Source: Escherichia phage slur14
Length of the DNA stretch: 64,000 bases
Reading direction: 5' to 3' (one strand)
Sequence record: NC_028448.1
The notes under the pieces were generated by a model, which saw nothing but the letters and a program-made list of their open reading frames with translations, was not told the DNA's origin and did not search any database. Each line of letters starts with the position of its first letter. Position 1 is the stretch's first letter. Positions 2,401 through 62,703 of the stretch are shown piece after piece. A program made the position numbers and the translations under genes.

Positions 2401-2457
2401 CTGTTCCTCCGTAGTTGATAGTTGTATAGTACCACAGAGGAACAGTCTTGTAAACAA
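2401..2457 (-). promoter_or_regulatory. early promoter with embedded stem-loop (PeSL-like cassette)
   Basis: Minus strand: GTTTAC -35, inverted repeat CTGTTCCTC/GAGGAACAG around -10 TGGTACTATAC, SD GGAGG in 3' arm. Confidence 0.6.
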
Positions 2458-2640
2458 CTTTTTTAAAAATATTCGTAATAAATGTGAATACCAACTACTA
2501 CCGCTGAAACCTGTGCAACCCACCACGCACAAGCAATAAGTACAGAATTCAAAATTTTCATAATAACCTCATCACAAAAGTAAATGTTAAACAAATTAAT
2601 GGAATACTAATTAACCAAACAAAACACCACCATAATGAAC

Positions 2641-2904
2641 TCATAGTTCAATCTCAATGATTTCCAGGTGTTTTTGTTTTATTGCCTTTTTAACACAATC
2701 ATGGACTAAATATGACCATGAATCATTATATTCTCCATTAACTAATCGTTGGAGATCTTCACGTGATGATAAGTAAGGTTGATCTGATTCCCATTTTGAT
2801 AAAAATACTGCAGTAAAAATATCTCCTTCACCTGTAGTTGAAGTCGTAAATGCAATAAATTCACCGGTAATTTTATGTTTAGCGTAATAAAATTTAAATT
2901 TCAT
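2641..2904 (-). CDS. hypothetical protein (87 aa)
   Basis: ORF track; GGAGGAG SD; promoter cassette just upstream. Confidence 0.55.
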   Translation of the reverse strand: MKFKFYYAKHKITGEFIAFTTSTTGEGDIFTAVFLSKWESDQPYLSSREDLQRLVNGEYNDSWSYLVHDCVKKAIKQKHLEIIEIEL

Positions 2905-2913
2905 TTTTACTCC

Positions 2914-2961
2914 TCCGTAGCTGATAGTTGTATAGTACCACGGTCCTTGTGGTATGTAAAC
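2914..2961 (-). promoter_or_regulatory. early promoter cassette
   Basis: GTTTAC ... TGGTACTATAC on minus strand upstream of 2641..2904. Confidence 0.55.
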
Positions 2962-2980
2962 TGTTTTGTGAAAAAATTTT

Positions 2981-3538
2981 TTAAATGGAAAGATACCATC
3001 CGTTGTAGTTGCTTTTTCTTACAACCTTACGAAGGTCTTCTCTGTCACCGATGAACTTCGGAGTGTACTGGATGACACCTGAATGAATTTCTTTAGTGTT
3101 GAATATAATTATACAGTCAGCGACTTGATGATTTAGAATGGGCCCTAGATTTATTCCAGAACCGTATGGATACTCTCCGCTGCATCCTGTTGTTACAGAA
3201 ATCCAACGTGAGTCAGTTTGGTGTGTCTTAACTTCTACACGAAGCCCGCAGTATCTTGGATGCGCCAATACATCCCATGCGTATGTATACGGGTCATTAA
3301 CATCCTCTTGGCCTTTATTGACATATCCGCTTAGCCAATCTGCTACAAAAAACTCTGCGTACACAGCGATACGGCATCTTTCGATAACTTCTGCCTTATC
3401 CTGATTCGGATTTTGTTTTAAAGAGTATCTTGCTGTATCAGCAATTTTGACCTTCATTTCACTAGTCAAGTCACTGTTCGATAGGGTAAATGTCGGAATC
3501 TGAAATAGTCTCTGTAAACCCGGATTCGTTTTCTGCAT
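2981..3538 (-). CDS. hypothetical protein (185 aa)
   Basis: ORF track; AAGGAAA SD before ATG at 3538; start overlaps upstream gene by 68 nt. Confidence 0.5.
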   Translation of the reverse strand: MQKTNPGLQRLFQIPTFTLSNSDLTSEMKVKIADTARYSLKQNPNQDKAEVIERCRIAVYAEFFVADWLSGYVNKGQEDVNDPYTYAWDVLAHPRYCGLRVEVKTHQTDSRWISVTTGCSGEYPYGSGINLGPILNHQVADCIIIFNTKEIHSGVIQYTPKFIGDREDLRKVVRKSNYNGWYLSI

Positions 3539-3800
3539 TTAGACTTTCCTTTTTACCACTGAGATAGGCGTTATATACTTTAAGAGTGCCATAATAAATT
3601 CGGTCATTTTCATCTAAAGACTCGCGGTCAAGTTCATCGAGCTCCTTTTTATCCATGACTATAACATTATTACAGTAAAGAAACCCAAGTTTTTCGTGAC
3701 CAAACTCAAATTTATTACAGTACACAATATTAGCGTGATGATTTCCGTGCAGTTTAATCTCTTTTATGTCGGAATCACCGATATTCATACAATAAATCAT
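3471..3800 (-). CDS. hypothetical protein (109 aa)
   Basis: ORF track; AAGGAAAAATT-ATG SD; hairpin upstream. Confidence 0.5.
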   Translation of the reverse strand: MIYCMNIGDSDIKEIKLHGNHHANIVYCNKFEFGHEKLGFLYCNNVIVMDKKELDELDRESLDENDRIYYGTLKVYNAYLSGKKESLNAENESGFTETISDSDIYPIEQ

Positions 3801-3811
3801 AATTTTTCCTT

Positions 3812-3840
3812 AAAACAAAAGGGCCGAAGCCCTTATTTTA
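3812..3840 (-). terminator. intrinsic terminator / RNA-stabilising hairpin
   Basis: Minus strand AAGGGC-UUCG-GCCCUU followed by UUUUGUUUU. Confidence 0.6.
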
Positions 3841-4032
3841 TTTGAATTGTGCAATTCTTTTCTCTAGACATTCAGCATAAGATTTCATTGAGATGAACTG
3901 TGAAAGTAGCAGTTCTTGCTCAACTGCACTAACTGTTAGAAACTTTGCGCTTTCTAAAAATTTGCTCAGTGCATTAATTTTGAGCATTAATTGATCGTAT
4001 TCTTCTTTTACTCGTGCTTGATAACCTAACAT
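3838..4032 (-). CDS. hypothetical protein (64 aa)
   Basis: ORF track; AAGGAAAATT SD. Confidence 0.5.
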   Translation of the reverse strand: MLGYQARVKEEYDQLMLKINALSKFLESAKFLTVSAVEQELLLSQFISMKSYAECLEKRIAQFK

Positions 4033-4046
4033 AATTTTCCTTAGTT

Positions 4047-4062
4047 AAGGGCCGAAGCCCTT
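4047..4062 (-). terminator. tetraloop hairpin at rIIB 3' end
   Basis: AAGGGCCGAAGCCCTT overlapping rIIB stop; no strong U-run. Confidence 0.4.
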
Positions 4063-7198: not shown

Positions 7199-7402
7199 TT
7201 AATTCATATTACGCTTAATAACTTCAGCAACTTCTAGTAGTTCATCTTTAGTTGCAGTGTCGGATTGAATTTTATCTCTAATATCCTTAAAGCGGTTTTT
7301 AAATTCTTCGGCTTCTCCCATATCGAAAAAGCGTTGAATGATTCTATATTCTCGATGAACTGCTTTATCAAAAAGTTCTAAATTTACTTTATATGATTTC
7401 AT
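7199..7402 (-). CDS. rIIA.1-like small protein
   Basis: ORF track; position between rIIA and topoisomerase gene; promoter cassette upstream. Confidence 0.6.
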
Positions 7403-7423
7403 TTCAATATCCTCATTTGCCCA

Positions 7424-7457
7424 ATTAATTATACCACATCCTTGTGGTAAAGTAAAC
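7424..7457 (-). promoter_or_regulatory. early promoter
   Basis: Minus strand GTTTACTTTACCACAAGGATGTGGTATAAT. Confidence 0.6.
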
Positions 7458-9329: not shown

Positions 9330-9343
9330 GGCCCGAAGGCCTT
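9328..9343 (-). terminator. tetraloop hairpin
   Basis: AAGGCC-CGAA-GGCCTT directly after lipoprotein ORF stop. Confidence 0.45.
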
Positions 9344-10810: not shown

Positions 10811-11080
10811 TTAATTGAACAGTGGAGCGATGCGTTTCAGAAGAGTAGCAGCACCTTTGGCGAATTTTACATCATGAAAAACAGTTTCTTCTTCCGTTAC
10901 AACACGAGCTTTAATGTTTTCACAATCCCAATTTTTACGAACAATCTTCAAAAGCTGCAGTAAATCTTTACATTCAGCAATATCGATAACACATCCACGA
11001 GAATCTTCCATTATCGCACGATAACCATAAGCCATACCATAATCGTTGAAAGATTGCTCGATGATAATTAAGTTTTCCAT
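10811..11080 (-). CDS. hypothetical protein (89 aa)
   Basis: Track ORF starts at TTG; trimmed to ATG with GGAGAA SD. Confidence 0.5.
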   Translation of the reverse strand: MENLIIIEQSFNDYGMAYGYRAIMEDSRGCVIDIAECKDLLQLLKIVRKNWDCENIKARVVTEEETVFHDVKFAKGAATLLKRIAPLFN

Positions 11081-11177
11081 TTTATTCTCCAAGTTGTTTT
11101 CTGTATCAGTAGTTGATATTGATATAGTACCATAATCAACTACTGATGTATATAGTTTTATGAAAAAATTTTAAACT

Positions 11178-11669
11178 TTATGCATAACGAGCTTTGCTAT
11201 AGTGTTTAATCCAGCTTTCAGGAATGACTTTGTATGTTCCTAAAAATACCGTGTTGTACAACTTAACACCGTCTTCTACCCATTGATCGGTAATGTATGC
11301 ACACATAGCGCGAGTACGGTTAACAACACCTTCCTCACCTTCAGTAAATTCAAACTCATAAGGAGCAACGAACTTGATAGCTTGACCGAGTTTCCACTTA
11401 AAGTCTACACCTACATGCGAAGTATCAATCGTTTCAATTCCTTTAGCGGGAACAGCTTTCAAAAACGCAGGCTCAAGAAATTTCCATCGAACATAACCAA
11501 ACTGAGGTTTAGACATTCCATCTTTAGGAATGATACGCACTTTTACTTCAGAATCTTCATCTTTAACACCATGTTTAAGCTGAATGCTTACGACTTCAAC
11601 CAATTTTCCTGCTGCTTTAGAACGGGATTTATCAGATACACGAGCAATTTCACCGATATTAATATTCAT
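11178..11669 (-). CDS. motB: MotB-like protein
   Basis: 163 aa; position upstream of dexA as in T4; C-terminal TDQWVEDGVKLYN motif shared with next ORF. Confidence 0.6.
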   Translation of the reverse strand: MNINIGEIARVSDKSRSKAAGKLVEVVSIQLKHGVKDEDSEVKVRIIPKDGMSKPQFGYVRWKFLEPAFLKAVPAKGIETIDTSHVGVDFKWKLGQAIKFVAPYEFEFTEGEEGVVNRTRAMCAYITDQWVEDGVKLYNTVFLGTYKVIPESWIKHYSKARYA

Positions 11670-11742
11670 AATTATCTCTCACTTGTTAAAAAGATTTTAT
11701 ACTCCGCAGGACCATTATACTCTGGTCCCAAGAGTTTGTAAA

Positions 11743-12246
11743 CTAGCTTACACGAACATTAATCACTGCGCTGCGAGGAACTACAGAGTACTCTCCAGCA
11801 TGAACTACATTAAGAAGTTCAACGCCATCTTCAATCCACTGGTCAGTTACCCAACCGCCGACCGGATTCGCGAATGGACGACGAATGTAAACTGCCTTAC
11901 ACAACAAATCAGTCGGGTCTTCAATTTTTTCAACTGGTGCCACATACATAGAAACTAAATCCATATCAATATGGGATTTTTCCTGTTCTTCTTTTTCAAT
12001 TTCTGTCAATAGACTAAAATCTTTTTCATAAATAATAAGCGATGACACCATTCCATAATAGTTTCTAATTTCAATATACATCATGCCGATAAGAATTCCG
12101 CTATTAACACTAATAACAGTAAAAGGATATCCGCCAGTTAAAGCAAGAAGTTCACAAAACTTATTATGAGCTGTATTAGACAGTACCGGAAAATTCTTAA
12201 TTTCATCAAATTTTTTCAATTGATAAACAGCATTATTTTTAATCAT
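11743..12246 (-). CDS. MotB paralog (167 aa)
   Basis: C-terminal TDQWIEDGVELLNVVHAGEY resembles MotB C-terminus. Confidence 0.5.
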   Translation of the reverse strand: MIKNNAVYQLKKFDEIKNFPVLSNTAHNKFCELLALTGGYPFTVISVNSGILIGMMYIEIRNYYGMVSSLIIYEKDFSLLTEIEKEEQEKSHIDMDLVSMYVAPVEKIEDPTDLLCKAVYIRRPFANPVGGWVTDQWIEDGVELLNVVHAGEYSVVPRSAVINVRVS

Positions 12247-12256
12247 AATTTTCTCT

Positions 12257-12760
12257 TTAATCTAAGGTAATAAAGCCTTTTAGTTCGGCATGTGACTTGC
12301 GGAACATTACTTGATGCCCGCCAACGATAACTTGGTCATCTGGTACTTCGTATACAGCAAGATAAAATCCTTTCGAAGCTAATTCTTCACGCTCTTCTCG
12401 TGTGAACCATCTCATCATATCATATTCGCTAGCGAAAGCAAAATGATAAAGAGCTATAAACCATCCTGGAATATAGTGATCTACGCCTACATATTCTTCT
12501 TTCTCAAAATTAGTATTAATTGCTATATTAGCATTTTTAACTAATAATTTGTCTTCATGCGGCACAGGAATTCTTTTATTATCATTACTATGATGCATAA
12601 AATTGGGTCTGTCATAACCTACGCGTAATAACCACTCTTCACTCCATGAATCTATTATACTCCTGTACGGAGTTATTTGAACACAAAGATCTCGACGTAT
12701 TGTTATAGCATCTTCATAATTAAGAATACTAAATGATGATTCAACACGATAAATTTTCAT
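12257..12760 (-). CDS. hypothetical protein (167 aa)
   Basis: ORF track; GAGGATAAT SD; promoter cassette upstream. Confidence 0.55.
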   Translation of the reverse strand: MKIYRVESSFSILNYEDAITIRRDLCVQITPYRSIIDSWSEEWLLRVGYDRPNFMHHSNDNKRIPVPHEDKLLVKNANIAINTNFEKEEYVGVDHYIPGWFIALYHFAFASEYDMMRWFTREEREELASKGFYLAVYEVPDDQVIVGGHQVMFRKSHAELKGFITLD

Positions 12761-12770
12761 TTTATTATCC

Positions 12771-12817
12771 TCAGTAGCTATGGTGTTATAATACCATAAC
12801 TAACCGAGGAAGTAAAC
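12771..12817 (-). promoter_or_regulatory. early promoter cassette
   Basis: GTTTAC ... TGGTATTATAAC on minus strand. Confidence 0.55.
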
Positions 12818-15869: not shown

Positions 15870-16616
15870 TTATCCTCGGATAAGTTTAAAAATTGAACAA
15901 TTCAGCGGATATCCTCTTTTCAGTTTAAGTTTATCAATAAAAGACAAGTTTTGATACCGCTCTACACCTTGAATAATTTTATCACACATATCATATTGCA
16001 TTTCTGCTTCTGACAACTTTTTCACAATTTTCCAATCCGAGCCTTTAAGAAGAACGTTCAGTTTAACAACTTCAGCGCCTTCTGCTATGCGAGAACCATC
16101 AATACGAGCTTTAAGTGCTATAATCCTTAGCTTAATATCAGAGGTCTGTTTTGATTTAGAAAGCTTAGAAATGTGTTCAATTCGGTTTTCACGTTTTTTC
16201 TGTATAGCTTTAATTTGATTATAAGTCTTTTTGATTTTAGCCCATTTCTTTTCATCTAAATTTAGTTTATGAACTTTTTTCGCAGATGAACGACCAATTC
16301 GCAAAGCAAACAAATCACGCTTTTCGATCAACTCTTCTAAAGTATAATCAGAACGAAATGTATTATACTTTTTCTTTACTGCAATAACATTCCCTTTAAT
16401 GTATCCAACGTTATTATCAAAACGTTCTAATGATAATTTCTCTCCTTCAATACGATTATCAAAAGGTTCTCCTGAGTAAGCACAAACTTTCTGATCTAAA
16501 ATGTTCTTAATGTAATTGAAGTCTAAGTTAAAATCTTTAGAACGTCTTTTTGCAGATGCCTGGGTATGCTCTAGACGACGTTTAATTTTACGAATTTGGT
16601 TATTAGACAGCTTCAT
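15870..16616 (-). CDS. srd: basic protein (248 aa), Srd-like by position
   Basis: Position between dda.1 and modA; lysine/arginine rich. Confidence 0.45.
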   Translation of the reverse strand: MKLSNNQIRKIKRRLEHTQASAKRRSKDFNLDFNYIKNILDQKVCAYSGEPFDNRIEGEKLSLERFDNNVGYIKGNVIAVKKKYNTFRSDYTLEELIEKRDLFALRIGRSSAKKVHKLNLDEKKWAKIKKTYNQIKAIQKKRENRIEHISKLSKSKQTSDIKLRIIALKARIDGSRIAEGAEVVKLNVLLKGSDWKIVKKLSEAEMQYDMCDKIIQGVERYQNLSFIDKLKLKRGYPLNCSIFKLIRG

Positions 16617-16647
16617 ATTTTTCTCACATCTTACGGACGGTTAACTA

Positions 16648-16682
16648 CTTATACTATAACATTTTTACTTTAACTTGTAAAC
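16648..16682 (-). promoter_or_regulatory. early promoter
   Basis: GTTTAC ... GTTATAGTAT on minus strand upstream of srd-like gene. Confidence 0.45.
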
Positions 16683-17341: not shown

Positions 17342-17961
17342 TCAACTACCTCAATATCATAAACTTTAAATGTTCCAAATGAATCGTGTAATTTTTCTTT
17401 TGAAATAGAAGTTATTCTATACTTTCCAATTGGAATCATCCATTCTTGTTCACGCACAATCATCATTAAGTTATCAGTACGCTCTGAATCTAGCCCATCA
17501 GTATCTTCATACGTGTACTTAAACTCAGTATTAGGAGAAGAAAGTATAATATCGCTGATATGGTCAGAATAATTAAAAGCTTTATCAGTTTTTAAGCGAA
17601 GTATTATTTTAGTAAAATATTCAGCATAAGAAAAAGAACATGCTGTGAGTAAACTAGTAGTAAATGAATCTACCCTGTTCGTTGAAAACACTTCTCCAAC
17701 TTGTAAATCTTTAATAAGTTCTTCTGTTGATTTTGATATACCACGATATAACTGATATGGTGATTTAGTTAAATGCTTTTTAATGATTTTATTCAATTGC
17801 CGATGAAGAGCTTCATTCTTTTTAGCTTCCATACATTGCCAAAGAACAGACTGCTCAAAGTCAGTAAATTTTTCACAGACCTTTTTATACATATCATATT
17901 GAAAATCAACGCTTTCAGCTTTTATAGATAACTGTTCAACATCTGCAAGATTAATAATCAT
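17338..17961 (-). CDS. modB: ModB ADP-ribosyltransferase
   Basis: 207 aa; adjacent paralog of modA. Confidence 0.75.
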   Translation of the reverse strand: MIINLADVEQLSIKAESVDFQYDMYKKVCEKFTDFEQSVLWQCMEAKKNEALHRQLNKIIKKHLTKSPYQLYRGISKSTEELIKDLQVGEVFSTNRVDSFTTSLLTACSFSYAEYFTKIILRLKTDKAFNYSDHISDIILSSPNTEFKYTYEDTDGLDSERTDNLMMIVREQEWMIPIGKYRITSISKEKLHDSFGTFKVYDIEVVE

Positions 17962-17982
17962 GATAGCCTCCGTATACTTCAG

Positions 17983-18017
17983 AAGCTATCATATCATCGT
18001 TAGAAAGGAAAGTAAAC
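17983..18017 (-). promoter_or_regulatory. early promoter
   Basis: GTTTAC ... GATATGATAG on minus strand upstream of modB. Confidence 0.45.
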
Positions 18018-19848: not shown

Positions 19849-20054
19849 TACAAAAAGCCTCTCTTGAATTCGACTTGCTTTTCGCCATAATCATATCGAA
19901 TCTCTGCATTAAATTCGACAGAACCATCTGCGTACATCATAAATGAATGCACAACAACTTCTGTAGACCATGGCTGTAGTTCATATTTCTTCATTACATG
20001 TCGTGAAATGATAATATCTAAATCTTCATTTGGTTTAATCCAGCGATTTAACAT
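19848..20054 (-). CDS. hypothetical protein (68 aa)
   Basis: ORF track; early promoter cassette upstream. Confidence 0.5.
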   Translation of the reverse strand: MLNRWIKPNEDLDIIISRHVMKKYELQPWSTEVVVHSFMMYADGSVEFNAEIRYDYGEKQVEFKRGFL

Positions 20055-20077
20055 AGTGCTCTCCTCTATAAGATAAT

Positions 20078-20110
20078 TCTATTATACCATACTCATTTTG
20101 GAAAGTAAAC
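20078..20110 (-). promoter_or_regulatory. early promoter
   Basis: GTTTAC ... TGGTATAAT on minus strand. Confidence 0.6.
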
Positions 20111-20124
20111 CATTTAAATGAAAA

Positions 20125-20146
20125 AAGGACTCCCGAAGGAGTCCTT
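20125..20146 (-). terminator. hairpin downstream of soc
   Basis: AAGGACTCC-CGAA-GGAGTCCTT flanked by A/T runs. Confidence 0.55.
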
Positions 20147-21391: not shown

Positions 21392-22731
<1,340 letters not shown>

Positions 22732-22740
22732 TATATCATC

Positions 22741-22786
22741 CTCAGCAATTTATTTTATAATACCATAACAAGCTGAGAAAGTAAAC
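22741..22786 (-). promoter_or_regulatory. early promoter cassette
   Basis: GTTTAC ... TGGTATTATAAA with flanking inverted repeat CTCAGC/GCTGAG. Confidence 0.55.
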
Positions 22787-25209: not shown

Positions 25210-25502
25210 TATTCACCTACCACTTCAGCGATGATATTTTTATTATTAAAGTTTTTATCGCAATACAGAACATAATTATACTGCATTACACCACCAGACT
25301 TAAGCTGTTTTTGCACTTCAGCTTTCATTTCAGGACGATCGCGCTCAACGATATTCATAATATCTGCTTCAATTTGGGTTTCAACTTCAGTCTGATCAGC
25401 AGTCATAGACCATTCGCACAAATCTTTATCATAACCTGCCATAGCAGGCTGAGCAGCACAAGAAGCTAAAGCAAAAATTGTAGCAAAGATAAATTTTTTC
25501 AT
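25209..25502 (-). CDS. sp: Spackle periplasmic superinfection-exclusion protein
   Basis: 97 aa; signal peptide MKKFIFATIFALASCAAQPAMA; matches T4 Sp from memory. Confidence 0.9.
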   Translation of the reverse strand: MKKFIFATIFALASCAAQPAMAGYDKDLCEWSMTADQTEVETQIEADIMNIVERDRPEMKAEVQKQLKSGGVMQYNYVLYCDKNFNNKNIIAEVVGE

Positions 25503-25510
25503 GATAATCT

Positions 25511-25558
25511 CCTCAGTAGTTTATGTTTATAGTATCTCAATTTCCAACAAAAGTAAAC
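25511..25558 (-). promoter_or_regulatory. early promoter upstream of sp
   Basis: GTTTAC ... GATACTATAAAC on minus strand. Confidence 0.5.
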
Positions 25559-25819: not shown

Positions 25820-26002
25820 TTATCCTCGGCAATCCACTTCACATACTTTCTTGTCATCAATGAAAGCTTTAACTAATGCTTTATTAACTTCAGCATACTG
25901 AGTAGTAGCCCATTGAACGTCATCTTTCATCATTGTGATTTCTTTAGTAAACATGCTTTCATTCTTAAACCACCCCATAAAAACTACCTTTACCAATTCC
26001 AT
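25820..26002 (-). CDS. dmd: Dmd antitoxin (inhibitor of host RnlA/LsoA)
   Basis: 60 aa MELVKVVFMGWFKNESMFTKEITMMKDD...; matches T4 Dmd from memory. Confidence 0.9.
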   Translation of the reverse strand: MELVKVVFMGWFKNESMFTKEITMMKDDVQWATTQYAEVNKALVKAFIDDKKVCEVDCRG

Positions 26003-26023
26003 AACAATCTCCTCATTTAACCA

Positions 26024-26061
26024 ACAAGACTACTATACCATAGTCTTGTCAGCTTGTAAAC
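26024..26061 (-). promoter_or_regulatory. early promoter cassette upstream of dmd
   Basis: GTTTAC, stem CAAGACTA/TAGTCTTG around TGGTATAGT. Confidence 0.6.
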
Positions 26062-31476: not shown

Positions 31477-31713
31477 TCAAATACAAGTAGTAATTACTCC
31501 AGTAGTGCTTACACAGATATTACCTAATTGAACACCCAGCGTTCCATTAGTATTCACATGAAGATTATCATCAATTTTAACTGATATTTTACCATTAGTG
31601 TGAATAACGGTGCTAGATTCAATCACAGGTTGAGTATCATTTTCAACACTAACAAATGGAACTGCTGCTAATGCAACTAAACAAACTGCTAAGCATCCCA
31701 TAACAATTTTCAT
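31477..31713 (-). CDS. small secreted/membrane protein (78 aa)
   Basis: Track ORF 31477..31902 trimmed to MKIVMGCLAV; upstream part is promoter cassette read-through. Confidence 0.5.
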   Translation of the reverse strand: MKIVMGCLAVCLVALAAVPFVSVENDTQPVIESSTVIHTNGKISVKIDDNLHVNTNGTLGVQLGNICVSTTGVITTCI

Positions 31714-31734
31714 TTTATTCTCCAAATCCGTATT

Positions 31735-31777
31735 AGTTGATAATTGTATAGTACCACAGAGGAACAGTCTTGTAAAC
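31735..31777 (-). promoter_or_regulatory. early promoter cassette
   Basis: Near-identical copy of the 2401 cassette. Confidence 0.6.
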
Positions 31778-31864
31778 AGTTTTGTGAAAAAATTTTTAAT
31801 GAATTTACAGGACCTAGAATCATCTATTTTTCCTAAGTATAGATTTATATTACTTGTATGAAAA

Positions 31865-31882
31865 AGGGACCCGGAGGTCCCT
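31865..31882 (-). terminator. intrinsic terminator downstream of gene 43
   Basis: GGGACC-CGGA-GGTCCC; minus strand followed by UUUUU. Confidence 0.55.
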
Positions 31883-31894
31883 AGATTTATTCTA

Positions 31895-45385: not shown

Positions 45386-45517
45386 TTAAATTTTCCAGTT
45401 ACCGTTTTCATCAATAAATTTAATCCAGTCATTTACTGACCACTTGGTCGTATCGCCTTTTGGAGCAATATTTAAAGTGTATAATCCTTGTTTAAAAAGC
45501 ATGCGTTTGATATTCAT
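45386..45517 (-). CDS. small protein (43 aa)
   Basis: Track ORF trimmed to ATG with GAGGAAAAT SD. Confidence 0.4.
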   Translation of the reverse strand: MNIKRMLFKQGLYTLNIAPKGDTTKWSVNDWIKFIDENGNWKI

Positions 45518-45524
45518 ATTTTCC

Positions 45525-45818
45525 TCAGCTGTAACGATAGCACTCGTTTGATTTACGCTTAGCAACTCGTTGAGAAGTATTGTAATCAAAATCATCGTCA
45601 ATGTAAACTGATTTTTTCAACTTTCTTACTTCACCGCGTAATTGACGATTTAGCTCATCTTTAACTTCTGAATCAATGCCTTTCATTCTACGCCATTTAT
45701 CTGAGCGAAAAATGTTTTCAACCATATCTTTATGACTTACCCCATCAGGAGCTTTACGCTTTCCGAAATAGTCATAATCACGCACTTTTAAGTCTTTACG
45801 ACGATACGTTTTACCCAT
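45525..45818 (-). CDS. basic protein (97 aa)
   Basis: Track ORF trimmed to MGKTYRRKDL start. Confidence 0.45.
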   Translation of the reverse strand: MGKTYRRKDLKVRDYDYFGKRKAPDGVSHKDMVENIFRSDKWRRMKGIDSEVKDELNRQLRGEVRKLKKSVYIDDDFDYNTSQRVAKRKSNECYRYS

Positions 45819-45993
45819 GGAGTTTAATTTCCTTAGCAACTGAACTAAATACAGCACGATCACAAATCATGCGTTTATGTAACTTGAGTATAATATAGCA
45901 AACTTCAAAACTATTTACATGAGTAACACGAACAGCATTACCATTAATGAGATAATACTGTCCCTTTTTAATTTCTTTATCAACCATAACCAT
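45811..45993 (-). CDS. hypothetical protein (60 aa)
   Basis: ORF track; early promoter upstream. Confidence 0.5.
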   Translation of the reverse strand: MVMVDKEIKKGQYYLINGNAVRVTHVNSFEVCYIILKLHKRMICDRAVFSSVAKEIKLHG

Positions 45994-46017
45994 ATCAATT
46001 CCTCAAAGGCAATTCAT

Positions 46018-46053
46018 ATGTTAATAATACCACAGTTTGAGCTCGTTGTAAAC
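46018..46053 (-). promoter_or_regulatory. early promoter
   Basis: GTTTAC ... TGGTATTAT on minus strand. Confidence 0.55.
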
Positions 46054-52457: not shown

Positions 52458-53459
52458 TTACTTAATTAACTGTAAAGCTTGTTCCAGACGATCAAGACGA
52501 TTAACAGATTCTTCCCAAATCCTTTTAGCCTGCTCATATTCTTTCTGCGCTTTATTAGAAATTTCTAGAACTTCTTTATAAGCTTTTTCTAGTGCAATAA
52601 CTTCTGGACGAATTTCTACCGGTTCAGGTGAATCGTCAAGACATTCCATTAGTTCCTCAAGGGTAGTTTCTTCTTTAGGAGTATTCACAATTTCATCACA
52701 TTTTTGTTGGTAAATTTCTTTATCAGTAGGTGAATAAGCACATTTCACTTCACGAAGACTAATTACAATTTTATATCCTTCCCAACCGCATATATTCTTA
52801 AAAGGATAAGTATGAATATTTTCTACTGTTTCCATACAAAGTAATGCGGTCTCTAATTGACGAGTTATAGTGCTAGCAATTGAGAAAAATTTATTAATAT
52901 TCTTTTGGTTAGTTTCTGGTGTAAAAAATCCATAATTCACAAAAATAGATACTTTATTTTTATCAAGTTCATATTCTTTTACGATAATCATATCAGAAGC
53001 CAAAGGATGAATTTGACGATAATCGCCATAACATAATTTAGAAGCTGATTTTAGAATCTGTCCTTTGAAAAGTCTGAAATTACTAATCCAACGACGAGTA
53101 AAAATATTCTCAGGGTCTTCTTTATTATTAAGATGATAAGAATTAACATCACCGAACCAATTATATCCTACTACATCTTTAGTTCGTTTAATTTCTTTCC
53201 CAAAATTACCAAGAATATCCCGATTAACCAAATATGAAAGAAGACGAGACTCTTTAAAGGTTTTCTTGATAACATCTTTATCTACACGACTAGAAATTTT
53301 ACGAATTTCATGAATAAATTTAGTAGAAGAAACAATACTTGCATCAACACTATTGAGCCATTGATTGATAATAGAAAGAACGATATTTTGACCAAACATC
53401 GGTATAGCTTTATCATCAATAACGCTATTGAATGATTTGATATATTCGTTACGAGTCAT
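52458..53459 (-). CDS. hypothetical protein (333 aa) with C-terminal coiled coil
   Basis: Track ORF trimmed to MTRNEY with GAGGAG SD; C-terminal LEKAYKEVLEISNKAQKEYEQAKRIWEESVNRLDRLEQALQLIK. Confidence 0.6.
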   Translation of the reverse strand: MTRNEYIKSFNSVIDDKAIPMFGQNIVLSIINQWLNSVDASIVSSTKFIHEIRKISSRVDKDVIKKTFKESRLLSYLVNRDILGNFGKEIKRTKDVVGYNWFGDVNSYHLNNKEDPENIFTRRWISNFRLFKGQILKSASKLCYGDYRQIHPLASDMIIVKEYELDKNKVSIFVNYGFFTPETNQKNINKFFSIASTITRQLETALLCMETVENIHTYPFKNICGWEGYKIVISLREVKCAYSPTDKEIYQQKCDEIVNTPKEETTLEELMECLDDSPEPVEIRPEVIALEKAYKEVLEISNKAQKEYEQAKRIWEESVNRLDRLEQALQLIK

Positions 53460-53484
53460 ATTAATCTCCTCAGTAGAAAGTAAG

Positions 53485-53517
53485 AACATTATACCACATC
53501 CTTGTGGCAAAGTAAAC
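53485..53517 (-). promoter_or_regulatory. early promoter
   Basis: GTTTACTTTGCCACAAGGATGTGGTATAAT; near-copy of the 7424 promoter. Confidence 0.6.
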
Positions 53518-55915: not shown

Positions 55916-56443
55916 TTATGCGAGTACCGTCTTTAACCGTTCTTCAAACTTCCGAAGAGTATTTTGGCGTTCAGCTCTTTGCTTTTTGTAAGTTTCAATA
56001 CGCTCTGAAATGAGAGTGTATCGTTCATTTACTGATTCTTTCATAAAATCAGGAATTTCACGAGAAGCTTTAATCTCGTCAAATTTATCAATAACAGCTT
56101 GCTCTTCAGCAATTAAGTTATCATACATTAAAATATCTTTCTTGATGAACTCAATATCTTCTTGAGTTACACGAGATAATTTAGATGCTTTATCCTTTTT
56201 GTACTGTTCGTTAGTATCACGAGACCAGTGCAATGTACGATTTTTATTCGTATTTTTGTAAATTTCTACAATACCGATCTCATCAATAATAACGATCCAA
56301 TTCCAACGGGATTTGTAAATTTGTCCTCCATCAACAGTGATTTCACCTCCGATTGAGATGTCATTAAAGAACTTGCTTTGTGCTTCAGATTTAAATTTAC
56401 CATCGTTGTAATTTACCAAGTTGAAAATATCTTTAGCGTTCAT
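55916..56443 (-). CDS. hypothetical protein (175 aa)
   Basis: Track ORF 55916..56503 trimmed to MNAKDIF; upstream part is promoter cassette read-through. Confidence 0.55.
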   Translation of the reverse strand: MNAKDIFNLVNYNDGKFKSEAQSKFFNDISIGGEITVDGGQIYKSRWNWIVIIDEIGIVEIYKNTNKNRTLHWSRDTNEQYKKDKASKLSRVTQEDIEFIKKDILMYDNLIAEEQAVIDKFDEIKASREIPDFMKESVNERYTLISERIETYKKQRAERQNTLRKFEERLKTVLA

Positions 56444-56449
56444 TTTGTG

Positions 56450-56501
56450 TTCCTCCGTAGTTGATAGTTGTATAGTACCACAGAGGAACGGTCTTGTAAA
56501 C
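56450..56501 (-). promoter_or_regulatory. early promoter cassette
   Basis: Near-identical copy of the 2401 cassette. Confidence 0.6.
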
Positions 56502-56503
56502 AA

Positions 56504-56907: not shown

Positions 56908-57876
56908 TTATTTCAGAAGAGTAACCTCAGCGATTTCTTGCCAGCCGTTTTTGTCGGTCATAATAAAGTCAGCAAGATAAAGTGCAGTACGCAGTGAAAC
57001 ATTGCGTAAACGGTTAACATTGACTTTCATCCATGATAATGCTTTATAAGTTTCTTCATCAGAAAGACCGCGCTTTTGCATCATGTCGGTTGAAAGAATA
57101 ACATCTTCAACCCTGACCATAATTTCTTCATTAGTGTGAACACCCAAATCTAAATAAACTGAGCGGGACACTAATGCTTGTAAATGTGGAGCAAGTTTAG
57201 TACCACGGTCTAATTCGCGGTCAATGTCAACGTTTGTGATAAAAACAATCGTTCCTTTAAATTCAAACTCACGCTCAATGCCTTTTTCTTCTAAGTAAGA
57301 AGATGCAGTGCTCCAGCAGACTTTACGGGTCTCTCCGGTGTCCAGAGCGGCTTTTAGAAGATTAAGAATGTCCATATCAGAGAAAACATCCACATCATCA
57401 ATCAAAAGGACAGAATTCTCTTCACGATTATTCCAGAGCTGTTCATAAAGACCAATACCAGAGATTTTACCGTTAATGCTTTTATATTCAATGTATCCAT
57501 TATCATTTGCTTTATTCAAAGCTTTATCTAAAGAATACGTTTTACCAATACCCGCCGCACCAGAGATAATTAATGAACGAATGTTTCCGTTAATAATACC
57601 ATTCGTCATCATTCCCATAACATTAAATCTTTTATTAATGCGGGTTTTCATATCTTCATATGATTCTTTAACTTCTTCAACTTTTACACCATCATATGAA
57701 ATGTCTGATTTGTAAACCCAAACACCGCGACGTTTACCGTCAATTTCAACAAAAACTTTACCATCTCCTTGTGCATCTACCGGAGCATTATCTGGGAACC
57801 ATTCGCCTAAGAGCTCAAAAGTTCCAGAGATTTCTTTACCGAAGTAGATACCCTTATTGATAGTTACAGTTTTCAT
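56908..57876 (-). CDS. AAA+/P-loop ATPase (322 aa)
   Basis: Walker A GAAGIGKT and Walker B LLIDDVD. Confidence 0.65.
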   Translation of the reverse strand: MKTVTINKGIYFGKEISGTFELLGEWFPDNAPVDAQGDGKVFVEIDGKRRGVWVYKSDISYDGVKVEEVKESYEDMKTRINKRFNVMGMMTNGIINGNIRSLIISGAAGIGKTYSLDKALNKANDNGYIEYKSINGKISGIGLYEQLWNNREENSVLLIDDVDVFSDMDILNLLKAALDTGETRKVCWSTASSYLEEKGIEREFEFKGTIVFITNVDIDRELDRGTKLAPHLQALVSRSVYLDLGVHTNEEIMVRVEDVILSTDMMQKRGLSDEETYKALSWMKVNVNRLRNVSLRTALYLADFIMTDKNGWQEIAEVTLLK

Positions 57877-57933
57877 TTTATTCTCCTTTGATTTGATAGG
57901 ACTACTATAACATAGTCCTATCAGTTTGTATAC

Positions 57934-58134
57934 TTATTTTGACATTTCTTCGATGTCACGACGATACCCGTCACGAACTTCACGAAGAGCTTCAAGGCCA
58001 CACATAGGCTCGATACCAGTAATGTGAACTTGATTAATCTGATACTCTACATCTTCTAACTGAGCGAAAACATAACGACGTTCAGCTGCACAACCAGATT
58101 TAGCTTTACCGAAACGTTTATTCAAAGTAGTCAT
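57934..58134 (-). CDS. hypothetical protein (66 aa)
   Basis: ORF track; promoter cassette upstream. Confidence 0.5.
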   Translation of the reverse strand: MTTLNKRFGKAKSGCAAERRYVFAQLEDVEYQINQVHITGIEPMCGLEALREVRDGYRRDIEEMSK

Positions 58135-58159
58135 TTTGTATCTCCAATTTACTCATTTG

Positions 58160-58202
58160 TTTTGATAGGTCTATAGTATCAACAACTACAGACCATGTAA
58201 AC
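58160..58202 (-). promoter_or_regulatory. early promoter
   Basis: GTTTAC ... GATACTATAG on minus strand. Confidence 0.5.
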
Positions 58203-58469: not shown

Positions 58470-58615
58470 TGATTCTTCTCCAAATAAGTTTCGATAATTT
58501 TCTGGGCGAGATAAACCGCGTTATCTTCAGTTGCGTCTTCTAAGAAACTTTCAAAACACTCTGAAATTTCTTCTGTATCAATCAACTTTTTTACTTCAAT
58601 TGGTGTAATTTTCAT
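58466..58615 (-). CDS. small acidic protein (49 aa)
   Basis: Manual translation MKITPIEVKKLIDTEEISECF...; ATGA overlap with downstream gene. Confidence 0.35.
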   Translation of the reverse strand: MKITPIEVKKLIDTEEISECFESFLEDATEDNAVYLAQKIIETYLEKNQ

Positions 58616-58639
58616 TTTGTTTTCCGTTTAAGTGTTTGT

Positions 58640-58681
58640 TTTGATAGTTGTATAGTACCATAAAGCTTTATGCTTGTAAAC
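58640..58681 (-). promoter_or_regulatory. early promoter cassette
   Basis: GTTTAC ... TGGTACTATAC with AAAGCTTT palindrome. Confidence 0.55.
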
Positions 58682-58711
58682 AGTTTTGTGAAAAATTTTT
58701 GAAATAAAAAA

Positions 58712-58731
58712 AGGGAGCCTTCGGGCTCCCT
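58712..58731 (-). terminator. intrinsic terminator downstream of nucleotidyltransferase gene
   Basis: Minus strand AGGGAGCC-CGAA-GGCUCCCU followed by UUUUUUU. Confidence 0.65.
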
Positions 58732-61275: not shown

Positions 61276-61554
61276 TTAATCCTTTTTATTTGCGCTGATT
61301 TGTTCTAAAATTTTAGAGTATTCCTTTGTATCAGATTTACGTACAATTGATACACTATAAGGCATACTATCGGTGTCTTTTATAAAGCGTTCCAAATGAC
61401 ACTCTAACAAAATTTCTGGATTATAAATCGTGTACATCAAATTACCTGTTGCTCCACGATATTGGCAGATTTCTACTGATTGAACACCATTCCATAATTT
61501 TGTTAAAACTAAGTCACCTACTTCTAATTTAGGAAAACTCATATTATTCACCAA
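61276..61554 (-). CDS. hypothetical protein (92 aa)
   Basis: ORF track. Confidence 0.5.
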   Translation of the reverse strand: MVNNMSFPKLEVGDLVLTKLWNGVQSVEICQYRGATGNLMYTIYNPEILLECHLERFIKDTDSMPYSVSIVRKSDTKEYSKILEQISANKKD

Positions 61555-61729
61555 TTAAAGTTTCAATATAAGAATCAAGATTTACTTTAGCTTCTTCCAT
61601 AAGAGTTTTGTATTTAATCTTGTTAGCATGTCCGGAGAAAGCTGATTCATCAATAATTGTTGATGTATGAACAGCTTTACTATACGTCTCAATTAATTCT
61701 CTTAATTTAAAAGCCTGCTCACTTGTCAT
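61544..61729 (-). CDS. small helical protein (61 aa)
   Basis: N-terminus MTSEQAFKLRELIETY resembles neighbouring small ORFs. Confidence 0.5.
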   Translation of the reverse strand: MTSEQAFKLRELIETYSKAVHTSTIIDESAFSGHANKIKYKTLMEEAKVNLDSYIETLIGE

Positions 61730-61849
61730 TACATACTCCTTTGAATAATATCAATAATGTTGTTCACCAGATTATAAGTAAACATTGGGTAATTATATTG
61801 AATCATCACATACACAACAAACAAAACTTTCATTCTCTTCTCCTTGGCA

Positions 61850-61891
61850 GTTGACAAGATTACTATACCATAACCTTGCCAACTTGTAAAC
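61850..61891 (-). promoter_or_regulatory. early promoter cassette
   Basis: GTTTAC ... TGGTATAGT with flanking inverted repeat. Confidence 0.55.
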
Positions 61892-61893
61892 CA

Positions 61894-62040
61894 TTAAATG
61901 ACGTTTTCAATAAAATTCTGAAGCTTTGTGTGAGCATCAACCATGATTTTCATTTCTTCTTTTGCGAAAGCTGTACCTCTTTCCCGAGCAGAATACTCAT
62001 AGTCAGAAACTGCATTAGCATATTCTTCAATTAGTTTCAT
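61894..62040 (-). CDS. small protein (48 aa)
   Basis: Manual translation MKLIEEYANAVSDYEYSARERG...; weak SD. Confidence 0.3.
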   Translation of the reverse strand: MKLIEEYANAVSDYEYSARERGTAFAKEEMKIMVDAHTKLQNFIENVI

Positions 62041-62056
62041 TAAAAACATCTGCTTT

Positions 62057-62251
62057 TCAGTTTTCATTATTCCACCTAATCATTTCAAGATATTGAACTA
62101 ACTTAGCTTTAGATTTATCCAAATCCTTTTTAGCTGCTTCTATACCGTCGTATGAATATCCTTCACAATGCTCAACTGCTAATTGATATGAATCTATTTC
62201 AATATCACGTGCTAATTTAATGATTTTTTCAAACTGTTCGCGTGTTAGCAT
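62057..62251 (-). CDS. small helical protein (64 aa)
   Basis: MLTREQFEKIIKLARDIEID... Confidence 0.5.
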   Translation of the reverse strand: MLTREQFEKIIKLARDIEIDSYQLAVEHCEGYSYDGIEAAKKDLDKSKAKLVQYLEMIRWNNEN

Positions 62252-62253
62252 AC

Positions 62254-62457
62254 TTAAACTCTCGTATTATGATCGATAATTTCATCAAGAAACATATCTA
62301 ACGCTTCTAAAGCATTATCCACTTTAGTTTCAAAGTCTTTAATGCCTTTATTCGAAATACCCGATGAATACCAAGCAAAGTTAATGCGCTCCTCGTCTGC
62401 TTTACGAATTAAAGCTACCAATTCCTTAATTTTATCAGCTTGTTCGATACTAATCAT
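62254..62457 (-). CDS. small helical protein (67 aa)
   Basis: Track ORF trimmed to [15 protein letters not shown]. Confidence 0.45.
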   Translation of the reverse strand: MISIEQADKIKELVALIRKADEERINFAWYSSGISNKGIKDFETKVDNALEALDMFLDEIIDHNTRV

Positions 62458-62645
62458 TATTCCACCACATATGAAAGAGAGAATATTGCACACGCCATGT
62501 GAGTTGCAACTTCATCACACATATTATAACGTTTCTTAAGAAGTTCTACAAGTTCTTCACTAGTAACTTCATCCATGTCGACGAAAAAATCACCATTAAT
62601 GATGACGTAGATATTTCCTTCTTGATTGAGTGCTTCAATTTTCAT
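62457..62645 (-). CDS. small acidic protein (62 aa)
   Basis: Track ORF trimmed to MKIEALNQ; promoter cassette upstream. Confidence 0.5.
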
Positions 62646-62664
62646 GATGTTCTCCTCTTTATCC

Positions 62665-62703
62665 GATGGTTGTATAGTATCACAGCTCAAATGGAAAGTA
62701 AAC
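62665..62703 (-). promoter_or_regulatory. early promoter
   Basis: GTTTTAC ... TGATACTATAC on minus strand. Confidence 0.45.

Follow-up and report, generated by a model that had tools for sequence, protein, structure and literature searches.

The promoter-plus-stem-loop modules scattered over this stretch of 64,000 nucleotides of Escherichia phage slur14 (NC_028448.1; hereafter the window) are probably T-even early promoters fused to the leader and ribosome binding site of the gene that follows, i.e., units of the PeSL family, whose stems would act on read-through RNA and which would serve as homology patches. The modules themselves are the known early promoters of T4, and the cassette family has already been published as PeSL, for RB49 and phi1 by Arbiol 2010 (PMC2839356) and for PST and T4, with an exchange of ndd.4/.5, by Comeau 2014 (PMC4122927). 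A preliminary description of this DNA stated that such cassettes had been proposed to shuffle genes in T4-type phages, which is accurate (PMC2839356, PMC4122927). Stem-loops lying between or over the promoter boxes were likewise known for RB49/phi1 (PMC2839356). What is added here is an excess of stems between cognate arms, a sense-strand bias of their G.U pairs, an exclusivity between stems and terminators, and a pairing of anti-SD sequences with the SD.

The window covers a Tequatrovirus early region, from gene 52 to rI, and shows about 96% identity to many sequenced T4 relatives. The search for all copies, using a PWM built from the copies themselves, gives 22 T4-type early promoters, all of them on the minus strand of the window; the plus strand has none. 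The bare pattern GTTTA(C/T)-N16-18-TAnnnT is found 25 times on the minus strand vs 3 times on the plus strand. The promoter lies 25-61 nt from the start of the downstream called gene at 21 of the 22 sites, so that the "at least 15 gene starts" first proposed turn out to be an underestimate. The promoters are made of an UP element, GTTTAC, an 18-nt spacer, TGn and TAnnnT (consensus of 20 copies: ..AaaA.tTTt.A.aAA.TtGTTTAC...T.TGGTAttATA.aa.TAtcaa). They thus show the features defining T4 early promoters (Pe), which are a -35 GTTTAC, a spacing of 17-18 bp, a TGn extended -10, TAnnnT as -10 and, at about -40 to -55, an UP element rich in A/T; the -35 box is degenerate in two copies (ATATAC at 11153, GTATAC at 57933). 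Their location is also that of Pe promoters: co-oriented, just 5' of early genes and with T4 counterparts, at least 18 of the 22 cassettes having matching sites at corresponding positions in T4. Five copies drive ORFs without T4 counterpart. Since most cassettes stand at T4 positions, they are by this comparison old, conserved regulatory sites and not recently moved elements. Furthermore, the cassette is present at 4-8 places per record in 554 phage records, a paralogue in the T4 motA record Z48569 carries annotated -35 and -10 signals, and an independent repeat finder returns the same families (D1-D4, D8, D9). The 22 sites are the following (energies in kcal/mol).

2395..2455, minus strand: early promoter and leader of the ndd.4 homologue (37 aa); predicted SD-masking stem CTGTTCCTCTGTGG ... 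ACGGAGGAACAG, -23.2, z -5.3; T4 orthologue at 166807.
2902..2961, minus strand: early promoter of an 87-aa ORF absent from T4, where the counterpart (P ndd.6) drives ndd.6; short CCAC/GTGG spacer hairpin only.
7400..7457, minus strand: rIIA.1 early promoter, subtype 2; hairpin within the spacer, CCACA AGGA TGTGG.
11078..11153, minus strand: early promoter, -35 ATATAC, of an 89-aa ORF absent from T4; perfect 13-bp stem around the -10, -20.2, z -5.8; SD GGAGAATAAAATG.
11667..11743, minus strand: motB early promoter; tight stem enclosing the -10 (GGGACC/GGTCC, extended), -16.8, z -3.8.
12758..12817, minus strand: motB.2 early promoter; long stem that begins immediately after the -35 (TTCCTCGG...) and reaches the SD (..CTGAGGA), -23.7, z -5.5.
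16614..16682, minus strand: srd early promoter, without significant stem.
17959..18017, minus strand: modB early promoter; 5' arm formed by the -10 and leader start, 3' arm over SD and AUG, -18.0, z -3.6.
20052..20146, minus strand: mrh.2 early promoter directly after an intrinsic terminator (20125-20146, UUCG loop and T-run); terminator-type PeSL layout.
22729..22786, minus strand: early promoter of a 186-aa ORF that T4 lacks; stem TTTCTCAGC ... GCTGAGGA over the SD, -12.1, z -2.3.
25500..25558, minus strand: sp (spackle) early promoter, without stem.
26000..26061, minus strand: dmd early promoter; it overlaps the gene 41 end, and its -10 is enclosed by a tight stem, -18.9, z -3.9.
31711..31882, minus strand: terminator (31865-31882), then early promoter (-35 at 31777) of a 78-aa ORF inserted ahead of imm.1; without stem, z +1.2.
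45515..45608, minus strand: weak candidate promoter within coding sequence, 5' of the 55.4 homologue; no TGn, PWM 19.9 bits; kept in T4 and RB69.
45991..46053, minus strand: 55.6 early promoter; terminator at 46135-46147, 81 nt upstream.
53457..53517, minus strand: nrdC.4 early promoter, subtype 2; hairpin within the spacer.
56441..56501, minus strand: nrdC.8 early promoter; predicted SD-masking stem, -19.4, z -4.4; 67 nt shared with the 2455 cassette at 97% identity.
57874..57933, minus strand: nrdC.10 promoter, -35 GTATAC; tight stem GATAGGACTA/TAGTCCTATC, -17.7, z -4.6; SD GGAGAATAAAATG.
58132..58202, minus strand: early promoter of a 66-aa ORF that T4 lacks; the -10 is enclosed by a stem, GGTCT..AGACC.
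58613..58731, minus strand: terminator (58712-58731), then early promoter of a 49-aa ORF, the T4 counterpart driving nrdC.10; terminator-type PeSL layout, without embedded stem.
61831..61891, minus strand: mobD.2 early promoter; tight 14-bp stem around the -10, -19.0, z -4.1.
62643..62736, minus strand: mobD.5 early promoter after a terminator (62719-62736, UUCG loop); terminator-type PeSL layout.

Some of these units are closely related to each other. The near-identical copies reported at 2401, 31735 and 56450 share the minus-strand 34-mer GTTTACAAGACTGTTCCTCTGTGGTACTATACAA, found without mismatch at 2422-2455 and 31744-31777 and with one mismatch at 56468-56501, while no copy is expected from shuffles. 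In the same way, the second subtype reported at 7424 and 53485 corresponds to GTTTACTTT(A/G)CCACAAGGATGTGGTATAAT at 7428-7457 and 53488-53517, a pair that is 97% identical. The mechanical ORFs 2284..2532, 31477..31902 and 55916..56503 all exist and do run through the cassette as had been pointed out, the real starts being the SD-preceded ATGs at 2397, 31713 and 56443. The spurious peptide that they were said to share is identical in one ORF and only near-identical in the other two (read-through peptides LFTRLFLCGTIQLSTTEE, LFTRLFLCGTIQLSTNTD and (M)FTRPFLCGTIQLSTTEE).

Not every copy carries a stem. An inverted repeat enclosing the -10, initially given as part of the module, occurs in about 10 of the 22 copies (2455, 56501, 12817, 22786, 18017, 61891, 57933, 26061, 11743 and 11153), with dG of -12 to -24 kcal/mol and z of -2.3 to -5.8 against dinucleotide shuffles. 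The same folding finds none at 31777, 58681, 25558, 16682 and 46053, the copy at 31777 retaining the 5' arm but having a different leader. GGAGG, which was described as frequent in the 3' arm, is there in two copies (2455 and 56501) and not in the others, GAGGA occupying this place at 12817 and 22786. Where present, stems are real and promoter-specific. Cognate spacer/leader duplexes of the window have a mean of -11.6 vs -8.0 kcal/mol for non-cognate ones, and none of 20000 permutations reaches the observed mean. Among 181 promoter clusters taken from T-even relatives (2.1 Mb), 27.6% of cognate vs 3.3% of non-cognate pairs have a dG<=-12, an approximately 8-fold excess (z=-14.9).

Stem sequences are wholly different between promoters, and those at the positional orthologues of the dmd cassette (26061) are unrelated; covariation column by column is weak, as the stems vary in register. 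With strand-symmetric selection, more G.U pairs are on the side of the sense strand (43 vs 15, p=0.002; control 594 vs 636), and the stem differences between the window and T4 are A-U to G.U changes, the mobD.2 stem (61891) having two G.U pairs where T4 has A-U. This bias argues that the stems act as sense RNA rather than as DNA. The inverted repeats could instead form cruciforms or single-strand hairpins that aid melting, bind a dimeric repressor or make recombination hot spots, as the position of the -10 in the loop and the mapping of RB49 PeSL crossovers in or near stem-loops would allow. This seems very improbable: stems that differ completely between promoters offer no common protein site, a sense-strand bias of G.T oppositions is unlike a feature of duplex DNA, and an exclusivity with upstream RNA terminators would have no rationale at the DNA level.

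This exclusivity is marked. Canonical terminators lie 5' of 62703, 58681 and 20110, and farther from 31777 and 46053. Among the relatives, embedded stems occur in 2 of the 31 clusters with an intrinsic terminator within 120 nt upstream vs 58 of the 149 without (p=2.6e-4, the clusters being not fully independent); counted per family of downstream proteins, the values are 0/13 vs 26/71 (p=0.007). The embedded stems are not followed by a U-tract (only 1.7-2.3 T in the next 8 nt) and by this criterion may not be intrinsic terminators themselves. The PeSL authors nevertheless read them as attenuators or terminators of upstream transcription and not as translational masks. One RB49 PeSL stem cuts downstream lacZ expression as much as rrnB T1, the exclusivity would fit functional substitutes, and the tight stems (9-13 bp, loops of 6-9 nt) have a suitable shape, so this reading may hold for them. 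As an account of all stems it is unlikely, considering the missing U-tract, the long loops of the SD-covering stems and an enrichment of anti-SD sequences in spacers that has no reason under pure termination. Moreover, it is well established that many downstream genes of T4, from gene 41 to dmd and from motB to cef, are expressed by read-through. The tight stems end 3-15 nt 5' of a GGAG or GGAU SD; as they do not touch it, masking cannot be their role, and the function that we infer for them comes only from their exclusivity with terminators.

Other stems do reach the SD. Anti-SD 5-mers are found in 14.4% of spacers vs 2.4% of background windows (p=2.5e-13), clustered at spacer positions 2-5, and about a third of the stemmed copies pair such an anti-SD with the SD of the gene itself. 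The SD is covered by 21 of the 55 strong stems of the relatives, the loops of the SD-covering stems being long (12 nt in the median, at most 24). In the window, a helix over the SD and/or the AUG with its 5' arm upstream of the proximal start is found at 2455, 56501, 12817, 22786 and 18017; a calculation of SD accessibility gives clear discrimination only at 2455, 18017 and 31777. The SD is often also the optimal RegB cleavage site GGAGAAUAAAA. RegB requires this site to be single-stranded and is inhibited by structure (Durand 2006, PMC1702504), and the nrdC.8 and motB.2 sites are cut by RegB in T4 (PMC1702504). The stems could therefore be intercistronic RNA stability elements, guarding the 3' end of the upstream cistron after a RegB cut in the GGAG of the SD or a nearby RNase E cut. 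The short distance between the tight stems and the SD, the RegB optimum at several SDs with nrdC.8 and motB.2 as known cases, and the exclusivity, since a terminator hairpin would in itself shield the 3' end, all suit this possibility. We hold it to be quite unlikely, for it leaves unexplained the stems that bury GGAG itself, and the distance from stem to SD is variable.

The reading that we prefer is as follows. The unit, approximately 60-100 bp long, comprises an optional terminator, the A/T-rich UP element, GTTTAC, the 18-nt spacer, TGn, TAnnnT, a conserved start region ACAACTATCAAC, the SD and the ATG. It is established for T4 that early promoters are fired immediately by the host sigma-70 polymerase, and host sigma-70 RNA polymerase would fire from every copy right after infection. 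The spacer and the leader are stretches free in sequence and often mutually complementary. With a 5' arm that precedes the transcription start, a hairpin can form only in RNA that was begun at an upstream promoter and read through; the stems thus most likely act only on read-through RNA. In the anti-SD copies, the anti-SD (TTCCTCC) right after the -35 is the 5' arm, and, by analogy with T4 e, soc, 49 and I-TevI, the masked read-through RNA would be poorly translated and shielded from RegB, so that the short-lived early promoter of the gene itself would be the sole source of its protein. The remaining stemmed copies have a tight stem whose loop contains the -10, and this would insulate or attenuate read-through RNA, as terminators do elsewhere. 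We propose tentatively that embedded stems and upstream terminators might be mutually exclusive insulators, the anti-SD subclass limiting both translation and RegB exposure to RNA from the own early promoter. If true, translation would be gated as "immediate-early only" across the class, in an early counterpart of the late-promoter hairpins of e, soc and I-TevI, and the gate might contribute to the sharp and unexplained way in which early protein synthesis is shut off.

Being repeated and conserved over tens of bases, the units could also act as homology patches at which an ORF is now and then inserted, lost or exchanged and one copy converts another. The ndd.4 cassette of the window is 97% identical to the nrdC.8 cassette and only about 88% to its T4 orthologue, which points to ectopic conversion between the two. 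The copy at 31777, with a core identical to that of 2455 and a different leader (..GGAGAATAAAATG), is a chimera of one core and another leader. For three indels between the window and T4, the junction falls exactly within a cassette's conserved leader or SD (2914; 31700; 58609 with 57886), and two others adjoin cassettes (11073, 22799). As to the initial claim that cassettes bracket the most variable ORFs, the association is suggestive and not significant, genes absent from T4 representing 6/21 of the cassette-led genes vs 13/107 of the others (OR 2.9, p=0.086), or 6/21 vs 16/107 with six relatives (OR 2.3, p=0.20). In its strong form, the PeSL model holds that the cassettes are primarily mobile recombination modules and that mini-circle exchange drives most gene-content variation of the region. 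This model has been published for RB49/phi1, with mini-circles detected by inverse PCR, and proposed for PST/T4 (PMC2839356, PMC4122927); the junctions and the conversion given above, together with the 5 of 13 variable modules that begin at a cassette vs 16% of all gene starts (hand count; binomial p ~0.05), go in the same direction. We doubt this strong form, considering the non-significant association and the T4 counterparts of most cassettes. In addition, homing-endonuclease or intron differences account for 7 of the 22 indels, approximately 10 lie at boundaries without cassette, and a direct repeat of 49 nt, which is no promoter, flanks one insertion (24225-24581). The complementarity of arms, specific to each promoter, would also be left unexplained.

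Compared with T4 Pe, the promoters of the window share the UP element, GTTTAC, TGn, TAnnnT, the conserved start region and the orientation, as well as the position before motB, motB.2, srd, modB, mrh.2, sp, dmd, 55.6, nrdC.4, nrdC.8, mobD.2, mobD.5, rIIA.1 and ndd.4. Nothing essential separates them, the differences being the two degenerate -35 boxes and the five ORFs missing in T4. Like PeSLs, also described for nt-1/KVP40 (Comeau 2014), the units combine an AT-rich region with an early promoter, a stem-loop, an SD and an ATG in a cassette of about 100 bp that recurs between genes and close to indels, with a stem of z<=-2.3 in about 10 of the 22 and an upstream terminator-type stem in 3-5. 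The RB49/phi1 stems mostly lie in the interval from the -35 to the -10 or overlap the -10, and G-T pairs were noted in them; however, RB49 stems are G4...C4-rich with TTGACA-type promoters, whereas those of the window are AU-richer and promoter-specific. For PST, a figure legend puts the stems just 5' of the promoter, as in 3-5 copies of the window, while about 10 have stems around the -10. The RegB/S1 target (Durand 2006) is exactly matched by the SDs of 57933, 31777 and 11153, GGAGAATAAAA(TG), but it is a component of the cassette and not the cassette, other copies carrying GGAGG or GAGGA variants. Finally, the hairpins of T4 e, soc, 49 and I-TevI have their 5' arm upstream of the proximal start and their 3' arm with the SD and/or AUG, so that only long read-through transcripts fold, a geometry shared by 2455, 56501, 12817, 22786 and 18017. 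Their internal promoters are late (gp55) and late proteins are kept off early, whereas the early sigma-70 internal promoters of the window would confine synthesis to the immediate-early burst.

The promoter cassettes recognized in the preliminary description are present far above chance. The near-identical copies that it placed at three sites correspond to the 34-mer GTTTACAAGACTGTTCCTCTGTGGTACTATACAA, found on the minus strand at 2455, 31777 and 56501 (promoters are named here by the window coordinate of the first G of their -35 element, minus strand) with 0, 0 and 1 mismatches, chance expectation being none. In the same way, the two copies of the second subtype, 7457 and 53517, share 97% identity across 32 nt. 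A weight matrix derived from the copies identifies 22 sites on the minus strand of the whole window versus 0 on the plus strand, and 21 of the 22 are followed, 25-61 nt downstream, by a start codon preceded by an SD, where at least 15 gene starts had been proposed. A promoter-blind repeat finder recovered the same cassette families in the window. The cassettes flag genuine gene starts and also account for the shared peptide rightly suspected to be spurious: three long mechanical ORFs begin at TTG, run through the cassette and encode a near-identical peptide. Their true starts are 2397, 31713 and 56443, and annotation should shorten the ORFs accordingly, to 2284..2397, 31477..31713 and 55916..56443.

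The consensus of the copies consists of an A/T-rich UP element, GTTTAC, an 18-nt spacer with a TGG end, TAnnnT and then ACAACTATCAAC. It belongs to the class of T4 early promoters, whose matching layout has been reviewed (PMC2988021, PMC1524935). Since no promoter feature is annotated in the T4 GenBank and RefSeq records, orthology was set by sequence. T4 promoters match at corresponding positions for at least 18 of the 22 window sites, including those of ndd.4, rIIA.1, motB, motB.2, srd, modB, mrh.2, sp, dmd, 55.6, nrdC.4, nrdC.8, mobD.2 and mobD.5; in T4 record Z48569, both the -35 and the -10 of a paralogue, the motA promoter, are annotated. The core cassette occurs in 554 phage records, at 4-8 places per genome, and no family reached the gathering threshold in an Rfam scan of the window.

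Such elements are already known as PeSLs (early promoter, stem-loop and SD/ATG, repeated within hyperplastic regions), which were defined in RB49/phi1 (PMC2839356), proposed as mediators of modular shuffling via mini-circles (PMC2839356, PMC4122927) and later extended to PST/T4 and nt-1/KVP40, including the ndd.4/.5 exchange (PMC4122927). As these papers match both the cassettes first described here and the shuffling literature then alluded to, that description was accurate and its interpretation agrees in essence with what has been published: the cassettes are known T4 early promoters/PeSLs at conserved positions, of low novelty. Being textbook T4 combined with a published concept, the family is no discovery. 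In the openly accessible literature, which leaves older T4 papers outside its coverage, no earlier account of T4 early promoters with dyad symmetry was found; the stems of T4 itself may have an earlier mention.

More than 800 phage records are matched by the first 20 kb of the window, the closest being Tequatrovirus genomes (about 96-97% identity) that carry rIIA, rIIB, topoisomerase and dda. The window aligns colinearly with T4 (AF158101), starting at gene 52 (T4 164360), passing through the rIIB/rIIA origin and ending at rI/tk (T4 60078), with 88-99% identity and every gene of the window on the minus strand. This colinearity is broken by 22 indels or replacements, 7 of which are homing-endonuclease or intron differences.
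7457-9274; 29094-29936; 42739-42764; 47241-47261; 48537-48540; 59747-60716: window/T4 differences, positions listed jointly

Gene 39 is a single 605-aa ORF in the window, without the gene 60/60.1/mobA split of T4; mobB, mobC, mobD and the I-TevII intron of nrdD are missing, and a 280-aa TAGT glycosyltransferase-family protein stands in place of T4 segA and beta-gt.

The cassettes had also been expected to coincide with breakpoints of gene content. This holds for individual events, three window/T4 differences having junctions exactly inside conserved cassette sequence:
Promoter 2961, minus strand: junction after ...ACAACTATCA.CTAC; 87-aa ORF inserted ahead of ndd.6
Promoter 31777, minus strand: junction at GGAGAATAAAATGAAAAT; 78-aa ORF inserted ahead of imm.1
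Promoters 58681 and 57933, minus strand: junction between ...ACAACTATCAA of the former and GGAGAATAAAATG of the latter; 3 ORFs and 2 promoters inserted ahead of nrdC.10

Cassettes are directly adjoined by a further two indels (11073 and 22799). Furthermore, the ndd.4 cassette of the window shares 97% identity with the nrdC.8 cassette and differs from its T4 orthologue at about 7 of 61 positions; this greater proximity indicates ectopic conversion between copies. However, the evidence is against a strong shuffling claim, in which cassettes would account for gene-content variation in general. Genes absent from T4 are not significantly enriched behind cassettes (6/21 cassette-led versus 13/107 other genes, p=0.086), nor are variable genes in a comparison of six relatives (6/21 versus 16/107, p=0.20); the 7 homing-endonuclease or intron differences also count against it, and one insertion is bounded by a 49-nt non-promoter repeat. 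The two copies of this direct repeat (24221-24269 and 24579-24627, 98% identical) flank a 118-aa ORF (24225-24581), located between the 61.1 and 61.2 homologues, which is paralogous, at 36% identity, to the C-terminal part of gp61.2.

Among the variable ORFs led by cassettes, a 186-aa ORF (22171-22731, minus strand), absent from T4 and several close relatives, lies directly upstream of a homologue of dam (GATC methylase; 21392-22171, minus strand). Its Pfam matches, which stay below threshold, are to BanI and to the GATC restriction endonuclease DpnII (for DpnII, 16.8 bits with a cutoff of 23, E=0.0045). It is a member of PHROG 8706 (function unknown) and may be a candidate Dam-associated nuclease. 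Of the ORFs inserted between promoters 58681 and 58202, one (58206-58469, minus strand) encodes a protein assigned by Pfam to DUF4031 (E=7e-22). The remaining variable ORFs led by cassettes fall in PHROG families of unknown function.

When the interval from -35 to ATG of each promoter is folded as RNA, well-defined strong hairpins appear at 10 window promoters. In some, the 3' arm includes the SD; five others are tight, with the -10 within a 6-8 nt loop, and end ahead of the SD.
2455, minus strand: stem, 3' arm includes SD, -23.2 kcal/mol, z -5.3
56501, minus strand: stem, 3' arm includes SD, -19.4 kcal/mol
12817, minus strand: stem, 3' arm includes SD, -23.7 kcal/mol
22786, minus strand: stem, 3' arm includes SD, -12.1 kcal/mol
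18017, minus strand: stem, 5' arm is the -10 and 3' arm the SD and AUG, -18.0 kcal/mol
61891, minus strand: tight stem, -19.0 kcal/mol
57933, minus strand: tight stem, -17.7 kcal/mol
26061, minus strand: tight stem, -18.9 kcal/mol
11743, minus strand: tight stem, -16.8 kcal/mol
11153, minus strand: tight stem, -20.2 kcal/mol

Copy 31777, whose 5' arm is identical to that of 2455 and whose leader is different, has no fold (z +1.2). The arms are specific to each promoter: in the window, duplexes between spacer and leader average -11.6 kcal/mol for cognate pairs (both from one promoter) versus -8.0 kcal/mol for non-cognate pairs, and the observed mean was reached in 0 of 20000 permutations.

For a wider survey, a scan of IMG/VR with GTTTAC-N15-TGGTAYWATA, which among the matches listed gave mostly single, apparently chance hits in unrelated contigs, was replaced by protein-anchored retrieval (motB.2, nrdC.10 and gp41) of 93 loci from T-even relatives, totalling 2.1 Mb. 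The matrix found 419 sense versus 7 antisense sites, forming 181 sequence clusters, among which 50 cognate pairs (27.6%) reach a duplex of dG<=-12 versus 3.3% of non-cognate pairs (z=-14.9). These tests and the fold z-scores of the window rule out chance or composition as the origin of the stems. The promoter just after gene 41 bears strong stems of unrelated sequence in at least five lineages, and among close relatives its stem changes A-U to G.U. Column-wise covariation in a promoter-anchored alignment gave weak signals (maximum z about 3) because stem registers differ, and the register-free comparison of cognate and non-cognate pairs was used in its place.

A shared protein operator is ruled out, the stems having no common sequence. 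When stems were picked by Watson-Crick pairs only, which is strand-symmetric, and G.U pairs were allowed afterwards, the sense strand was more stable in 43 cases versus 15 for the antisense strand (Wilcoxon p=0.002), whereas non-cognate controls were symmetric (594 versus 636). This bias points to stems acting as sense RNA. As the transcription start implied by promoter geometry falls downstream of the 5' arm, the folding RNA could only be read-through from an upstream promoter.

The distribution of intrinsic terminators agrees with this dependence on read-through. Those close to window promoters are:
Directly upstream of 62703, 58681 and 20110, minus strand: intrinsic terminators (GC stem, often UUCG loop, T-run)
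81-87 nt upstream of 46053 and 31777, minus strand: intrinsic terminators of the same canonical form

Among survey clusters, embedded stems (dG<=-10) occur in 2/31 with a terminator within 120 nt upstream versus 58/149 without (Fisher p=2.6e-4), or 0/13 versus 26/71 when each downstream-protein family is counted once (p=0.007). Thus, a promoter would be either shielded by a terminator or equipped with a stem folding solely in read-through RNA. A second dispersed repeat, GGGC-UUCG-GCCC or GGCC-UUCG-GGCC hairpins with a U-run, corresponds to UUCG-tetraloop intrinsic terminators, which are known T4 features; seven are mostly at gene boundaries without an early promoter:
3819-3834, 4047-4062, 9329-9344, 34651-34666, 36821-36836, 41531-41546 and 45171-45186, minus strand: UUCG terminators

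In the survey, the 3' arm spans the SD in 21 of 55 strong stems, whose 5' arm, beginning directly behind the -35, opens with TTCCTC(C) or similar; in the remaining ones, which are tight, the -10 is in the loop and the stem ends 3-15 nt before the SD. Anti-SD pentamers are found in 14.4% of spacers versus 2.4% of background windows (p=2.5e-13), concentrated at spacer positions 2-5. Read-through and proximal RNA differ clearly in how unpaired their SD-AUG region is on average (mean unpaired probability) at three promoters only, and this measure was therefore left out of the evidence.

SD-covering stems would block translation and RegB access on read-through RNA, so that the protein of the gene would be made solely from its own early promoter. 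GGAGAATAAAA is the optimal single-stranded RegB/S1 site, T4 nrdC.8 and motB.2 are cut, and structure inhibits RegB (Durand et al., PMC1702504). Three SDs of the window match this optimum:
57876-57888, 31713-31725 and 11080-11092, minus strand: SD exactly GGAGAATAAAA(TG)

This 13-mer also forms the downstream junction of two window/T4 indels. A long SD-covering stem, TTTTCCTCTTGACTG ... TCAGTTAAGAGGAGAA, is present outside the window as well, at the regB promoter of T4 (T4 62797); judging from this pairing, regB read-through RNA would mask the GGAG at which RegB cleaves its own mRNA.

Tight stems could insulate or attenuate read-through RNA. Arbiol et al., who place PeSL stems most often between -35 and -10 or overlapping the -10, interpret them as terminators or attenuators (PMC2839356). 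The 8 nt following embedded stems contain only 1.7-2.3 T, and the absence of a T-run rules out canonical intrinsic terminators; the tight stems may still act in attenuation or in RNA stability.

Three regularities are worth testing: the promoter-specific arms, the sense-strand wobble bias, and terminator exclusivity with the anti-SD subclass. New in quantitative terms, they support an RNA-level, read-through-specific role and suggest a testable translational gate for early genes. If confirmed, they would raise the motif from description to a testable rule, by which tandem early promoters uncouple translation of their own genes from upstream transcription, and phage engineering would gain compact expression parts that insulate themselves. 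The geometry of the SD-covering stems matches that of the known hairpins of T4 e, soc, 49 and I-TevI, in which an internal promoter is the sole source of translatable RNA; the window stems differ from these hairpins in that their internal promoter is an early one.
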